A stretch of DNA of 62,648 bases, the filler included. It is 8 parts of 8 records of this genome, joined end to end, with 100 filler letters (N's around TTAATTAATTAA, not from the genome) between each part and the next. Parts side by side here need not be neighbours in the genome. Positions count along the whole stretch, not along the records: positions 1 to 5,355 come from DRR723986_8016; 7 more parts are not named here. One strand, 5' to 3'. The notes below the pieces were generated by a model, which ran no database searches, was not told where the DNA came from, and saw only the letters and a list, made by a program, of their open reading frames with translations. Of the stretch, positions 1 to 5,455 are shown piece by piece (position 1 is the first letter of the stretch; every line of letters starts with the position of its first letter). Made by a program: the position numbers and the translations under genes.

Positions 1-27
1 GCCGCCGCCACCGCCACCGCCACCACC
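1..27 (-). repeat. Poly-glycine (GGY)n tract at the window edge
   Basis: gccgccgccaccgccaccgccaccacc reads GGT GGT GGC GGT GGC GGT GGC GGC GGC in the coding frame. Confidence 0.85.
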
Positions 28-3000
28 GCTGACGTCGCGCGCCTCGAGGTCGACCAGCGCGCGGTTCTGGATGGGGGCCGCGCTGAGGCGGCCAAAGGCC
101 GGGTCGCCGTCGCGGTACAGCCGCACCACGTCCTCGCGCGTCAGCGCGTAGCCGTACGCGCGCACGGTGGACACCCAGCCGTCGAACGCCGCGCCGTCCC
201 TGGCGGCGTGCTTGCCCAGCACCAGGTCGTGGCGCCCGAGCATCGGCGAGCCGTGCTTGGACACAAAGTGGGGGAAGCCGTTCTTGTACAGGGTGATCTC
301 GCCGTCCTGCGTCCACACGCCGACAAAGTGGACGTAGCGGTTGGTCTCCAGGCCCGAGAAGATGGACCGGTACGTGCGCCCCACGCCGATCGCCGACGCC
401 CCGGCCGCGCCGAACTCGTTGCTGTGCGCGACGATGCACCGGCTCAGGTCGAGCGACGCCTGCTCCGAGGAGACGAGGAACGCCTCGTCGTTGGTCAGGT
501 TGCTCGCCATGGCCCACACCTCGATCGACAGCGACGGCGTGGTGTCCGCGGTGAGCCCCGCGTTGTCGATGGTCGCGTAGCTGCTGTCCTTGCCCTGGAA
601 GCGCACGCCGCCCGCCTCGGCGTCGAACCTGGCGCCGAACGCCACCACGGTGCCCCTCCCGCGCGGGGCCGACGCGCCGCGGTGGTCGGGCCACGCCGCG
701 CCGGCGGCGGCGTCCGCACCGGCGTCCGCACCGGCGGCAGCGTCGCGCAGGTCGCCCGCCTGCAGCCACACGAGCGCCGACTGCTTGATGTCGCGCACGG
801 TGCGCTGGGCGGGGGCTTGCGCGTTGGGCGACGACGCGCTGTCGTGGCCCATGGCGAACAGGCTGACCACCTCGTCGGCGCTGAGCGCGCGCTGGTAGAC
901 GCGGGCGGAGGCGACAAAGCCGTCGAGGAAGCTGCGCTCGTCCTGGGGGTGCGCGCCGAGCACGAGGTACGGCAGGCCCTCGAAGTTCTCGGTCTCCGCA
1001 GAGGCGAGGTCGGGCACGCCGTTGACGTACAGGAACGAGCGGCCGCCTTGCCTCCACGTCCCGACCACGTGCACCCACTCGCCCACGGACACGGGGCCGG
1101 CGGCGGCGGCGTACGCGCGCCCCACGCCCACCGCGGGCACGGGGTACCAGCCGGCGACGTGGAAGCGCGGGTCGTGCAGGACGAGGGAGCGGTCAAAGTC
1201 GCCGTTGTCGTGGCCGAAGAACCAGCCCGTGTTGCGCGCGCGGACGGCGGCGGGCTGCACCCACGCCTCCAGCGTGAGCTCGGCCATCTCCGCCGGGCCA
1301 ATGTCGAGGTTGAAGATCTTGACGAACGTCGTCCCGTCGCGGAAGCGCGCGCCGCCCGCCACGTCGTCGTAGAGCACGTTGTTGACGTCGACGACGAAGC
1401 CCGCGCTGAAGCGCTGGCCGCGGTGGTCGGCCCACGTGGGGCGGGACCCCTCCACCCCGGGGTCCGCGGCGACCAGGTCGCTCGCCTCCAGCCACAGCAG
1501 CGCGTCCTCGCGCACGTCCGTGGAGCCCACCCCGTCGGCGGAGAAGCCCGGGCGGCACTTGACCTCGCACGTGTCGCCGTGGTTCTTGTTGGCGCACTCG
1601 GAGAAGCTGACCCCCGTGACGCCCTCGGGCACGGGGCACGCGCGCTCCAGGCACGTGGGCAGCTGGCCCGCGAACGTGCCGTCCTCCGAGCACGTCAGCG
1701 GGAACGACTCGCGCTCGGCGTACACGCGCAGCGCCGAGACCTCGCCCTGCAGCACCTGCTCGTGCTTGTCGTGGCAGCCGCTGAGGAACGACACGATGTA
1801 GCCCTTGTCCCCCGTGGCCTCCAGCGGGAGCTCCCGCTCCACCGACACGCGCTCCTCGTCGTTGACGCTGATCGTCGCCGCGCCGCCGCCGTACGCCACC
1901 TCCACCGAGTACAGCACGTCGCGCTCAAAGTCGCAGCCCGTCAGCACCACGCGGTCGGTGCACTGCACGCCAAAGCCGATGGCGAACTTGGACGACCCCG
2001 CCGGGCAGCCCGCGGCGTTGCCCGAGCGCGCAAAGGCGTAGTAGTGGCCCCCGCAGCAGGACGTCTTGGAGCCGCCCAGCGAGAAGAACGCCACCGTCCC
2101 TTCCTCCCCCGCCTGCCCCGTCGCGGACGACACCAGGCCGTTGAACGAGATGGTGAAAGGGGCGCCCGAGGGCATGGCGGAGACGTACGAGTCGGCGAGC
2201 GACGCGACGCGGTAGGCCGCGGACGCCTCGTAGGCCACGTCCACGCTCGGCTCGCCGTCCACGCACGACACGTCGCACGACTGGCCCACGGCCTTGCCGG
2301 CGCAGTTGGAAAAGTCGACCTGCAGCGGGGCGCGGGGGACGGGGCACGTCTTCTCGAGGCACGGGTTGGTGCCGGTGAAGGCGCCGTTGGCGCCGCACTC
2401 GAGCGTGGCCGTGGAGCGGTCGCCCCACGCGCGGACGAACTGCACGGAGCTGGAGACGTGGTCCGCGGCGCCGGCGCTCGAGTGGCACGACGTCAGGTAG
2501 GACACGAGGTAGCGCCCGGAGGCGTCGCTCGCCTCCAGCGGGAACGCGGCGCGCACCGTCTGCTGCCTCTCGCCGTCGACGTAGAGCGCGCTCTTGCCGT
2601 CCTCGTCCAGCGCCGCGCGCACGGTGTACGAGACGCCCTTGGAGAACTTGCAGGCCGAGAACACGGGGGCGGACTGCTTGCACGCGGGCGCAAAGCCGAA
2701 CGCGAACCGCCCCGACCCGTGCGAGCAGCCCACCTCGCCCGAGGAGACGGTGAACACCTCGACGCCGCGGCTGCAGCACTCTTGCGCGCCGCCGAGCAGC
2801 ACGAGGGCGCCGTGGTCCCACGCCTCGGGGGCGTCGGTGTTGACCCTGGCCACAAAGCCGACGTTGAGCGGGCCCTCGGGCAGGCGCTCCAGGAGCGAGT
2901 ACCTTGGCACGGGCGCGCTGACGGTGGTGGCCAGGTCGTACACCACGTCCGGCGACTCGTGGTTGGGCAGGCACTTGGCGGTGCAGCGCTCGCCGGTCTT

Positions 3001-5283
3001 CTTGCCCACGCAGTCGGCAAAGTCGGTGCCCGAGTGGCGCGGCAGCGCGCACTGGTTGGCGGTGCACACGGGGTACTCGCCGGCGAACGAGCCGTCGGCG
3101 GCGCACTCGAGGGCGCTCTCGCACACCACGGCGTCCACGAACGCGAACGGCAGGCCCACCAGCTTGCCCGCGCTCAGGCCCAGCAAGGGGGTGGTGGCCT
3201 GCGCCCACGCGGCGTCGCCGAACACGGCGCTGGTGGGGTTGTCGTTGGCGGCCGCGACGACGGCGCTGACGCTGGAGGTCAGGTCCTCGAGGTTCTTGAA
3301 GCGGCCCTCCGAGTACTTGTCAAAGCCGATGGGGACGCGCGCCGCCGCCTTGCCGCTGCGCTTGACGGCGTTGAGCACCTTCTCCAGCTTCTCCTCGGTG
3401 CGCACGGACACGAGCGACAGGCCCAGGTACGCGCCGCACACCCGCCTGAGGTCGTCGATGCCCTTGACCTGGAGGCCCGCGGTGCTGACCACCACCAGGT
3501 CGCCCTGCATGGCGAAGAACGTGGCGTCGCTGGACGCGTGGGGGTCGAAGCGCGGCACCTCCCTGGCGCGGCAGCACCGCCCGACCCGCGGGCCGCTCGT
3601 GTCGACCGAGAAGAACCGGCAGCCCGGCGTGTCGGCGCACCAGTTGCGGCAGCTCGTCACGGGGTTGTCCGGGTTGCACGGGTAGGCGGCGTACGGCCCG
3701 GACCCGCACGTCAGGCAGGCGTTGATGCCGTCCCACAGCACCGCCTCAATGTCCTCCACGGGCTGCTGGCCGCGCATCAGCGCCGTCGACGTCCCGAACC
3801 CGGCGTTGCAGCGCACGAAGCACCGCTCGCCCGTGCGCGCGCCGCGGCACGCGGACGTGTCCAGGCTGGCCGGCTGCGGGCCCGCCCGGCACATGTTGGG
3901 CACGCACGTGGGGTGGGTGCCGGTGAACTTGGCGTCCATGCCGCACTCGTACACGCCGTCCTCCGAGTCGGGGCGCACGGTGTAGCCCGGCAGGCAGCGC
4001 ACCACGCACTGCTCGCCGTTGGTGAGCCCGCTGCACTCGGAGAAGTCCACGCCGTCCACGGGCTCCGGGTCCCTGCACCCCTTGGGCTCGCACGCGGGCG
4101 GGATCCCCAGCAGCACGCCGCCGCGCGCGCACGTGTACTTGGAGCGCACCGTGGAGGGGAGGAAGGAGATCTTGGGGTCCAGCACGAACGTGGCGCTGTT
4201 CTTGAACTCGTCCGTGTCCTCCGCGACGGTGGCCACCTTGACCACCCCCGAGGCGGCCGAGTACACGACGTAGTCGCCCGGCTGCAAGATGGGGCGGAAG
4301 CTGTGCCCGTCCCTGGCGCCGTTCAGCGCGTCGTCCAGGTAGAACGAGCACCCCTCGGCGTACAGGGTGCCCTGCTCGAACTCCGCGAACAGCAGCTTCT
4401 GGGTCTGGTAGCACAGGTACTTGGCGGCGTCGGGCGAGAAGATGCTGACCGCGCCCTCGGTGCCCGACAGCGACGGCCGGATGGTGAGCTGGTGGCTCGG
4501 CGGGTCCACCATGCGCACGTCCCTCCCGCCGTCGATCTGCATCGACAGCGTCGCGCGCTGCGACGACAGGAAGTGGTGCCTGGTCGGCGACTGGGTGGCG
4601 ACGTACCCCTCCTTGCACGCGATGGTGGTCGACTCGTAGATGGCCAGCGGGGGGGCGGTGACGGGCCCAAGGTCCACGTTGTCCAGCGGTTGGGGCGGCG
4701 CGCAGCTCGACACCTCGCAGTCCGGCAGCGTGCCCAGCAGCAGGCCAGAGGTGCCGCACCGGAAGGTCTGCTCGCTCGGGCCGTGGCCGGGGTGCACGTA
4801 GTGGCCCGGCGAGCACTTGGCCGTGCACTCTTGCGTGGTCTTCCTGCCCTTGCAGGCGGAGGTGTCCACCTCGGCCGACTCGGGCAGGTCGGCGCACGTG
4901 TTCGCGGGGCAGTGCACCGTGTCTCCGTGGAACGCCCCGTCCGGGTTGCACGTCAGCTCCACCGTCTCCCCCGTGTACCCCGGCTGGCAGACCGCGCTGC
5001 AGCGCTCCGTGGTGGTCTTGCCCACGCACGAGGCCACGTCCACGCCCGCCACCTGCTCGGGCTGCGCGCACTGGTTGGCCTGGCACCCCAGCGCGCCCTT
5101 GCCAAACACCCCCGACGGGAGGCACTCGTACGACGACGCCTCGCCCGTGTAGCCCGGCGAGCACCGCGCCGTGCACCCCTCGGTCGTGCGCTTGCCCACG
5201 CAGTCGGCAAAGTCGCCCCCGGCCACCGTCGCGCGCAGCGCCTCGACATCGCACAGGTTCGGTGAGCAGGTGAAGCTGGTGCC
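1..5283 (-). CDS. Internal exon (1761 codons, runs off the contig) of a very large eukaryotic extracellular protein: sushi/CCP-like Cys repeats with AbfB-like, PAN-like, C-type-lectin-like and LamG/ConA-like modules
   Basis: I translated the minus frame 5283->1 by hand and found no stop; third codon positions are almost all G/C. It begins GTSFTCSPNLCDVEA...DFADCVGKRTTEGCTARCSPGYTG and contains LTLEAWVQP...GEWVHVVGTW...LYVNG...ARVYQRALSADEV (Laminin_G_3-type). It is absent from the ORF track because there is no stop inside the window. Confidence 0.92.
1545..5255 (-). repeat. Array of nine sushi/CCP-like protein repeats (C..D(F/T)S.C.G..TG..C...C.PGY...Y.C..DG.F.G..P.C)
   Basis: Recurring units in the translation, e.g. 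CRDPEPVDGVDFSECSGLTNGEQCVVRCLPGYTVRPDSEDGVYECGMDAKFTGTHPTC and CAQPEQVAGVDVASCVGKTTTERCSAVCQPGYTGETVELTCNPDGAFHGDTVHC. Boundaries are approximate. Confidence 0.8.
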
Positions 5284-5355
5284 CTGCAAGAAGGGGCAAC
5301 CAAACCCAACCCCAGAACAAAAAGCGCAGGCGGTGTGTGTGTGTGTGTGTGTGTG
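5284..5355 (-). other. 3' end of a spliceosomal intron (pyrimidine tract + TTGCAG acceptor)
   Basis: The minus strand reads ...cctgcgctttttgttctggggttgggtttggttgccccttcttgcag|GGC ACC AGC. The AG at 5285-5284 abuts the in-frame exon, and composition changes abruptly here. Confidence 0.8.
5333..5355. repeat. (GT)n/(AC)n microsatellite, intronic, at the contig end
   Basis: Run of gtgtgt... up to the N spacer. Confidence 0.95.
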
Positions 5356-5455
5356 NNNNNNNNNNNNNNNNNNNNNNNNNNNNNNNNNNNNNNNNNNNNT
5401 TAATTAATTAANNNNNNNNNNNNNNNNNNNNNNNNNNNNNNNNNNNNNNNNNNNN
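5356..5455. other. Artificial contig spacer
   Basis: N44-TTAATTAATTAA-N44 (stops in all frames); seven identical copies in the window. Confidence 0.98.

Follow-up and report, generated by a model that had tools for sequence, protein, structure and literature searches.

Binding-domain folds inserted at one loop of sushi-like repeats in a gene fragment probably derived from a high-GC marine protist

Can a small extracellular repeat carry a complete binding domain inside one of its loops and still close around it? This question was raised by the first of eight contigs in a 62,648-base stretch of DNA (the window, meaning the whole stretch that was analysed), where contig 1, at window positions 1-5355, was found to encode on its minus strand a cysteine-rich mosaic protein with nine sushi-like repeats, several of them interrupted. 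The original prediction for this DNA described four intact repeats and five split at one loop, four of which resume after the insert, and took the whole to be a rod-like scaffold that displays interchangeable glycan-binding heads sideways, a design it regarded as undescribed. Our reading is that contig 1 is a fragment of a nuclear gene from a high-GC marine protist and codes for the central part of a very large protein of many domains, in which binding domains are carried inside sushi modules whose halves still pair. We assign this reading a probability of roughly 0.7.

Repeats R1 to R9 were identified from cysteine positions and a repeat table as sharing the framework C1..Ca..Cb-x3-C2-(P/A)G(Y/F)..C3..G-x-F-x-G..C4 (residue 1 being the codon at window positions 5286-5284). 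Four are intact, namely R1 (residues 12-68), R2 (73-126), R3 (131-190) and R5 (404-461), with a length of 54-60 residues and a spacing between C2 and C3 of 12, 12, 18 and 16 residues respectively. In R4 (195-399), R6 (466-741), R7 (746-976) and R8 (981-1212) the same spacing is 161, 234, 191 and 190 residues, and R9 (from residue 1217) is present as an N-terminal half only, with the contig ending before any C-terminal half. All eight complete repeats possess C1, C2, C3 and C4, the extra Ca-Cb cysteine pair occurs in eight of the nine (R4 being of the classical four-cysteine type without it), and the linker from each C4 to the next C1 is exactly 4 residues long in eight of eight cases. A 57-column profile of our own was built from 516 intact six-cysteine repeats, drawn from 154 retrieved proteins, and used together with Pfam and structure prediction to delimit the following features, listed from the N-terminal side.

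Window 5083-5253, minus strand: R1, intact sushi-like repeat (repeat table; own profile, with R1-R3 at 36-37.5 bits).
Window 4909-5070, minus strand: R2, intact sushi-like repeat (repeat table, own profile).
Window 4717-4896, minus strand: R3, intact sushi-like repeat (repeat table, own profile).
Window 4594-4704, minus strand: R4 N-half (cysteine positions, repeat table).
Window 4144-4593, minus strand: R4 insert, AbfB-type domain (Pfam PF05270).
Window 4090-4143, minus strand: R4 C-half (repeat table, own profile).
Window 3904-4077, minus strand: R5, intact sushi-like repeat (Pfam Sushi; own profile, 41.5 bits).
Window 3790-3891, minus strand: R6 N-half (own profile, columns 2-37, 27.3 bits).
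Window 3118-3789, minus strand: R6 insert, a predicted cysteine-rich PAN/apple-like module followed by a C-type-lectin-like fold (AlphaFold2 (AF2) model and fold search).
Window 3064-3117, minus strand: R6 C-half (own profile, columns 38-55).
Window 2953-3051, minus strand: R7 N-half (own profile).
Window 2413-2952, minus strand: R7 insert, a predicted jelly roll of ConA-like / LamG / pentraxin / CBM40 type with six cysteines (AF2 model and fold search).
Window 2359-2412, minus strand: R7 C-half (own profile).
Window 2245-2346, minus strand: R8 N-half (own profile).
Window 1705-2244, minus strand: R8 insert, a paralogue of the R7 jelly roll (unit alignment).
Window 1651-1704, minus strand: R8 C-half (own profile).
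Window 1534-1638, minus strand: R9 N-half (own profile, columns 2-34, 26.3 bits), with the C-half beyond the contig.
Window 1-1533, minus strand: beginning of the R9 insert, with two Laminin_G_3 domains and the opening residues of a third (Pfam PF13385).

The repeats are assigned to the sushi/CCP family on the basis of their sequence, as Pfam Sushi (PF00084) was matched in two stretches at 24.1 bits against a cutoff of 20.7, the best stretch being R5 (profile positions 1-56 of 56), which agrees with the sushi-like nature originally proposed for them. The same family was matched above its cutoff in the homologues P0002 (21.3 bits) and P0006 (35.3 bits) and below it in P0003 (16.3 bits). With our own profile, the N-halves of R6-R9 were matched from column 2 to columns 32-37 and the C-halves of R6-R8 from columns 36-39 to columns 53-55; the R4 halves gave sub-threshold partial matches only (columns 26-36 and 38-54, with scores of -0.6 and 0.5). 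As the N-half and C-half matches end and resume at like columns, the break lies at one loop in all of the split repeats. Each insert of the split repeats that resume is flanked by an N-half match and then a C-half match, the host being otherwise intact, and every match to a C-half alone over the 1762 residues directly precedes the next repeat, with no strays. Within the window, such half-pairs are confined to the split repeats; among the 154 proteins, they occur in this family and in one further case, with a 36-residue insertion. The predicted count of intact, split and resuming repeats is borne out by both profile columns and cysteine spacing, as is the alignment of separated halves with intact repeats for the N-halves of R6-R9 and the C-halves of R6-R8, with R4 remaining sub-threshold. 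The array itself stands, but it had been placed at window positions 1-4710 and in fact starts at approximately 5283, so that R1-R3 (4717-5253), three of the four intact repeats, lie outside that range.

Word-indexed and exhaustive representative searches over 1.84 billion proteins identified only six representative proteins with the nested layout (P0007, P0003, P0002, P0008, P0009 and P0022), with P0006 (3552 residues) being a longer member of the P0003 cluster. The other approximately 148 matches were found to contain sushi repeats only, and those that carry a label belong to dinoflagellates (Polykrikos kofoidii, Cladocopium sp.). All splits and inserts are shared at the same positions by P0002, P0003, P0007 and P0008, at 36-39% identity in full-length alignment, and P0009, a partial fragment with 34% identity, spans some of this layout but not all of it. 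The four-sequence alignment shows no variation at any of the six sushi cysteines, nor at the G-x-F-x-G and P-x-C residues of the C-halves. The missing C-half of R9 was located 972, 1006 and 967 residues after the N-half in P0003, P0007 and P0008 respectively, and additional Laminin_G_3 domains together with a SUEL lectin occupy the stretch between the two halves. A tenth repeat is split as well, by a cysteine-rich insert of approximately 88 residues, and is followed by an array of SUEL lectins (its halves were paired by profile in P0003, P0006 and P0008, and the C-half in P0007 comes from a regular-expression scan and alignment only). The original idea of interchangeable heads does not survive this comparison: the same insert occupies the same repeat in P0002, P0003, P0007 and P0008, the order of the heads has stayed constant while the homologues diverged to 34-39% identity, and R7 and R8 represent a whole-unit duplication. 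A scan of metagenome contigs with a small alignment gave 451 pattern matches, none of which was confirmed as a homologous DNA locus.

Terminal modules of the GCC2/GCC3 and SUEL types were also found in the homologues, and P0006 begins with a hydrophobic segment resembling a signal peptide. A search for further hydrophobic 19-mers was negative in P0006 and in the four other homologues scanned, so that P0006 looks like a secreted soluble protein. Judged from the P0006 signal peptide only, the protein encoded on contig 1 is probably secreted.

Comparison of the inserts to known families and folds showed them to be of several kinds. The R4 insert was matched by AbfB (PF05270) at E 4.3e-5 and 24.1 bits against a cutoff of 22.8 (profile positions 36-136 of 137), a family with the beta-trefoil fold; Pfam also detected it at this position in P0002, P0003 and P0006. 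Laminin_G_3 (PF13385) was matched in the R9 insert in two stretches at 112.7-114.9 bits against a cutoff of 27.6 (E 4.7e-33, the best at residues 1335-1473), and the homologues carry on with further Laminin_G_3 domains past the aligned ‘LEARDV’ start. Between the two Laminin_G_3 domains of contig 1 there is a low-complexity Ala/Gly/Asp stretch (residues ~1515-1530, window ~690-740) without a counterpart in the homologues, which is probably a GC-driven repeat expansion.

The R6 unit, comprising both halves and the insert, was modelled with AF2 from a six-row alignment (model mdcbdc45c2ffd) with a predicted local distance difference test score (pLDDT) of 74.9 and a predicted template modelling score (pTM) of 0.74, which makes it a model of medium confidence. 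In the VIA fold search, model residues ~128-264 resembled C-type-lectin-like domains (CTLDs), namely codakine (Z 11.0, 119 of 129 residues aligned, root mean square deviation 2.6), tetranectin (Z 10.6) and CL-K1 (Z 10.5), and CTLDs made up 49 of the 50 rows of the best-50 list. Foldseek also returned a CTLD (probability 0.98, E 1.4e-2), with no match at E <= 0.001. The cysteine-rich residues ~62-125 resembled the HGF N (PAN) domain at Z 7.1 (80 of 91 residues aligned, rank 50), which is below the caution level of 8. ParG, the only Pfam row for this insert, is unrelated and sub-threshold (E 0.19). Many of the CTLD alignments start at residue 36-40 of the model and not at ~130, that is, at a strand before the PAN-like module (window ~3100-3790). 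On the model, the PAN module may be nested in the CTLD, with the strand before it replacing the CTLD N-terminal strand, giving a three-level nest of PAN, CTLD and sushi; this is held as tentative because the strand has a pLDDT of only ~55-68.

For the R7 unit (model m76334cffcb69, seven-row alignment, pLDDT 79.7, pTM 0.73), model residues 30/36-216 were matched in the VIA search by AbnA domain 4 (Z 13.5, 156 residues aligned, root mean square deviation 2.9), CBM40 (Z 13.0) and PTX3 (Z 12.3). The top scores were Z 13.5, 13.4, 13.0 and 13.0, the aligned structures including arabinan-binding, CBM40, pentraxin and LG domains, 151 chains reached Z >= 8, and Foldseek gave E 2.6e-6. Aligned over their full length, with both halves and the insert included, the R7 and R8 units are 30% identical (E 1e-31), and by this alignment they appear to have arisen through duplication of the whole nested unit. 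A sequence search of PDB gave 0 matches at E <= 0.01, and the best ESM Atlas score, 0.87, was under the 0.9 level and provides leads only, to ConA-like, Laminin_G_3 and sialidase-N folds. The insert identities that had been guessed from the letters were thus recovered, AbfB and two stretches of Laminin_G_3 with Pfam, the CTLD by fold and, below the caution level, a PAN-like module, and the two inserts of approximately 180 residues in R7 and R8 are ConA-like jelly rolls by their fold matches (Z 13.5).

These inserts would have no bearing on the protein if they were introns, or cassette exons in frame by chance, leaving a mature protein with intact sushi repeats only. At least one intron is indeed present in the gene, its 3’ end preceding the exon under study, and open frames are of no help here. 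An open frame alone has no coding value at such GC, because the opposite strand is also open: the minus strand of window positions 1-5286 is open over 1762 codons, and the plus strand of positions 1-5265 over 1754. The plus-strand translation is an Ala/Arg/Gly/Val-rich filler, and this frame was dismissed as a gene and read as a by-product of a GC content at third codon positions (GC3) near 98%. The boundaries of the exon are as follows.

Window 5284-5355, minus strand: 3’ end of an intron, with a (CA)n microsatellite, a pyrimidine-rich (T-rich) tract and a ...ttgcag acceptor, reaching to the contig end (sequence reading).
Window 1-5283, minus strand: a single uninterrupted coding exon of approximately 1761 codons, open at its 3’ end (frame, GC3, colinear homologues).

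The acceptor-like sequence is at 5284-5330, and the first Gly codon of the exon stands directly after ...ttgcag. RNA was available from one metatranscriptome run (X1), holding 5% of the sampled words and with 8 of 14 contig records listed. One X1 contig tracks the exon up to 5284 and is followed by 148 letters unlike the genome, the first 30 of which, translated by hand in frame, give a peptide with an A-G-Y-T...G-T motif that aligns with the Ephrin_rec_like segment (A-G-F-T / V-G-Y-T ... S-F-x-C) before R1 in P0003 and P0007. As this contig leaves the genome at 5284 and its loose letters continue in frame, the acceptor is real, and the exon begins at 5283 and continues until the contig stops. 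In a close relative, the gene is both transcribed and spliced.

In the same run, contigs at window positions 2839-3009, 1661-1869 and 3968-4210 were found to span, without a joint, the R7 N-half/insert border, the R8 insert/C-half border and the R4 insert/C-half border respectively; an RNA library can also contain DNA. As these contigs cross three of the nine borders unskipped, the inserts are, as far as this evidence reaches, not introns, and a contig of the same run was spliced at 5284. Furthermore, P0007 is a complete open reading frame from a Trinity transcript assembly and contains all inserts. GC3 inside every insert (0.97-1.00) is equal to that of the sushi parts, with the same codon periodicity, compared to a GC of 55% in the 69-base intron stub and a GC3 of 0.95-1.00 in every segment of the exon. 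The inserts also carry Pfam domains or confident known folds and are conserved at the protein level in five homologues. The intron explanation is therefore largely refuted and is regarded as highly improbable, and the possibility raised with the original prediction, that the inserts are spliced out of transcripts, is answered by the border-spanning contigs, the P0007 frame and the GC3 of the inserts. The X1 contigs diverge from the window at 1054, 1088, 2679, 3015 and 4796, none of which is a repeat/insert border, and these points may reflect paralogues or related species. An RNA joint from 3015 to 5109 (side 21, depth 2.2) was set aside as a likely repeat cross-match.

Several observations weigh against the reading of binding domains held in closed sushi modules. 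The canonical sushi Trp between C3 and C4 is absent, with Phe in R1, R2 and R5-R8 and Leu in R3 and R4; Phe for Trp is a subtype trait common to the dinoflagellate six-cysteine repeats. The R6 insert gave no Pfam match to PAN or CTLD families and no Lectin_C at E <= 5, and no canonical EPN/QPD or WND calcium/sugar motif was seen in its CTLD-like part by eye, without an alignment. No Pfam match was found for the R7 and R8 inserts, the AF2 models were built on shallow alignments of 6-7 rows, and in each run the remaining four models scored lower (60-75). The X1 contigs are short and 90-97% identical to the gene, and therefore come from a relative or paralogue, and among the 8 of 14 RNA records listed they bridge three of the nine repeat/insert borders, leaving six unbridged. 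With regard to closure of the modules, cysteine numbers are even on both sides of each insert (4+2, or 2+2 in R4), which would chemically allow the halves to fold separately; the R9 insert of approximately 1,000 residues leaves a long way to return; and both best-50 VIA lists were filled by insert domains, with the sushi parts barely tested. Complex prediction for the R8 halves (residues 977-1014 and 1187-1216) scored 0.24 against a mark of 0.34, without controls, and weighs neither way.

The term lectin is unproven for most of the heads because the CTLD-like insert lacks a Pfam match and a motif visible by eye and the R7 and R8 inserts lack a Pfam match. The glycan-binding nature originally ascribed to the heads accordingly stands at family level for AbfB in R4 and for SUEL in the homologues and does not extend beyond those, and the remaining heads are binding folds.

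The points on closure would fit a different outcome, in which the insertions are real and the halves no longer re-associate. The N-half, with its C1-C2 and Ca-Cb bonds, and the C-half, with C3-C4, would then be small independent disulfide-stapled caps or linkers in a linear string of binding domains. In favour of such relic halves are the even cysteine counts, the six-domain insert in R9, whose size makes re-closure look demanding, and fold-search lists that hold no direct structural evidence for closure. Against them, the core residues of the C-half are invariant across four homologues, the C-halves still match a profile made solely of intact repeats, and the standard 4-residue linker follows every C-half. 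Both halves are also modelled with confidence (in the R7 unit, 10-residue blocks have a mean pLDDT of 74-90 in the N-half and 69-89 in the C-half) within whole units of pTM 0.73-0.74. Relic halves are thus considered unlikely.

We infer instead that the halves of each split module still pair into one CCP fold through C1-C3 and C2-C4 disulfides. The support for this is indirect and comes from the conserved C-half core, the strict linkers, the identical break point in the split repeats, the duplication of a nested unit as a whole and the confidence of the modelled halves. The beta-trefoil, the CTLD and LG-type jelly rolls have adjacent N- and C-termini, so the single-domain inserts are of folds suited to such a position. 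PMC2490766 states that an inserted domain needs its two termini in spatial proximity. In laminin, interrupted repeats are described in PMC5338690 as keeping their regular packing, which argues for closure and against relic halves alike.

Contig 1 is one of eight contigs with a GC of 0.57-0.72, separated in the window by seven N44-TTAATTAATTAA-N44 spacers, located as follows.

Window 5356-5455, and sites 22415, 27854, 37763, 45001, 50261 and 56757: spacers between contigs.

Contig 2 contains compact open reading frames and is bacteria-like, and the whole record appears to be a mixed bin or contaminated assembly. The studied gene is confined to contig 1 (GC 72%, GC3 0.978), which is eukaryotic and misplaced among bacteria-like contigs. 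Both ends of contig 1 are simple repeats, of (GCC)n type at window positions 1-30 (read as poly-Gly from the minus strand) and, within the intron, (TG)n at 5335-5355, and this is probably where the assembly broke. The joining of heterogeneous contigs and these terminal repeats could suggest that contig 1 is itself a chimera of unrelated pieces, an assembly or binning artefact. This is scarcely credible, as its 1762 residues are colinear with four independent homologues from JGI, EukProt and Logan (P0002, P0003, P0007 and P0008, with small indels only) and codon usage is uniform across the contig; the misplacement among bacterial contigs is real, yet leaves the internal structure of the gene untouched.

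Among known proteins, selectins (CTLD-EGF-CCP) and CD93 (CTLD with sushi-like modules), both of which were among the fold matches of the R6 unit, use the same domain vocabulary for extracellular recognition. Their domains are arranged end to end with CCP arrays as stalks, whereas here the lectin-type domains are inside CCP modules. Lecticans and Limulus factor C are further tandem lectin-sushi mosaics. The dinoflagellate six-cysteine sushi proteins (P0010-P0015 and others) are of the same subtype, with the extra Ca-Cb pair and Phe for Trp, and are uninterrupted; their repeats share 31-35% identity with R5/R6, and Pfam Sushi was matched at 54-84 bits in P0010 and P0011. In integrin beta subunits, the beta-I domain is inside the hybrid domain, which is inside the PSI domain, a small cysteine-rich module being the outermost host. 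Multi-level extracellular nesting is alike in the two cases; the integrin differs in its folds, in having a single nest and in its well-studied allosteric role.

The closest likeness in principle is with laminin short arms, where, according to PMC5338690, the L4 domain interrupts an LE (laminin-type EGF-like) repeat between its Cys3 and Cys4, the LF domain sits between LE5 and LE6, and both L4 and LF have CBM35-like folds. There too a rod of small disulfide-rich repeats carries a CBM-like beta-sandwich inside the loop of one repeat, with the packing from repeat to repeat remaining regular despite an insert of approximately 220 residues. The differences are that the host is an LE repeat and not a CCP/sushi module, that one or two insertions occur there compared to five to six per chain here, that at least four insert types are found here, including a multi-domain insert of approximately 1,000 residues, and that this is a protist protein and the other an animal basement membrane protein. 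A search of the open-access literature found no published sushi domain interrupted by another domain, so the design appears to be undescribed for sushi modules within the reach of that search, but the principle has been published for L4 within LE (PMC5338690). What is apparently novel here, in sushi hosts, is how many insertions follow one another along the chain, how varied and how large the inserts are, and the possible three-level nest.

Tolerance of the same loop was also investigated outside of the nested family. Among the 154 proteins scanned, which gave 755 full-length repeat matches, no domain-sized insert between C2 and C3 was found outside the family, with the exception of a candidate in P0106. 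Shorter expansions of this loop were identified in P0153 (residues 775-856), with a 36-residue low-complexity (N-H-S-A-G)-like sequence, and in P0044 (residues 282-353), with approximately 30 residues, and these suggest that the C2-C3 loop tolerates length variation. In P0106, an unrelated FG-GAP-containing protein, residues ~2445-2800 comprise a six-cysteine N-half, approximately 290 residues, a C-half-like Y-T-C-P-A-G-T-F and then the next repeat. This may be a second, independent domain insertion in the same loop and is an unverified candidate. A bolder proposal is that the C2-C3 loop is a general insertion hotspot and that this family is the most heavily nested extracellular architecture known so far, with 6 of ~10 CCP modules holding different inserts, among them one of approximately 1,000 residues with Laminin_G_3 and SUEL domains, all closing into a continuous rod with fixed, ordered sideways heads and a possible PAN/CTLD/sushi nest; we place this somewhat short of even odds.

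The product is proposed to be a secreted multivalent protein with a stalk of six-cysteine sushi/CCP modules on 4-residue linkers, in which five of the nine modules encoded here (six of approximately ten in full-length homologues) have received a complete binding domain or array of domains in the C2-C3 loop. If the halves close, they would restore a continuous stalk, with each insert attached sideways to its module through a two-stranded connector, and the heads would follow in the order AbfB, PAN-CTLD, two jelly rolls and a Laminin_G_3/SUEL cluster. Its function would most likely be multivalent binding of glycans or other surface polymers, in adhesion, recognition of prey or partners, or matrix assembly.

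Closure of the halves would mean that a CCP module of approximately 60 residues can host inserts of 150 to approximately 1,000 residues, and do so repeatedly along one chain. It would also offer a natural template for presenting binding domains along a rigid stalk. Domain parsers and structure predictors, as a rule, take small extracellular modules to be unbroken, and the family would put that assumption to a stringent test. Marine protists would gain a further large multi-lectin protein, hitherto unannotated, in their recognition repertoire, with its nearest repeat relatives in dinoflagellates.

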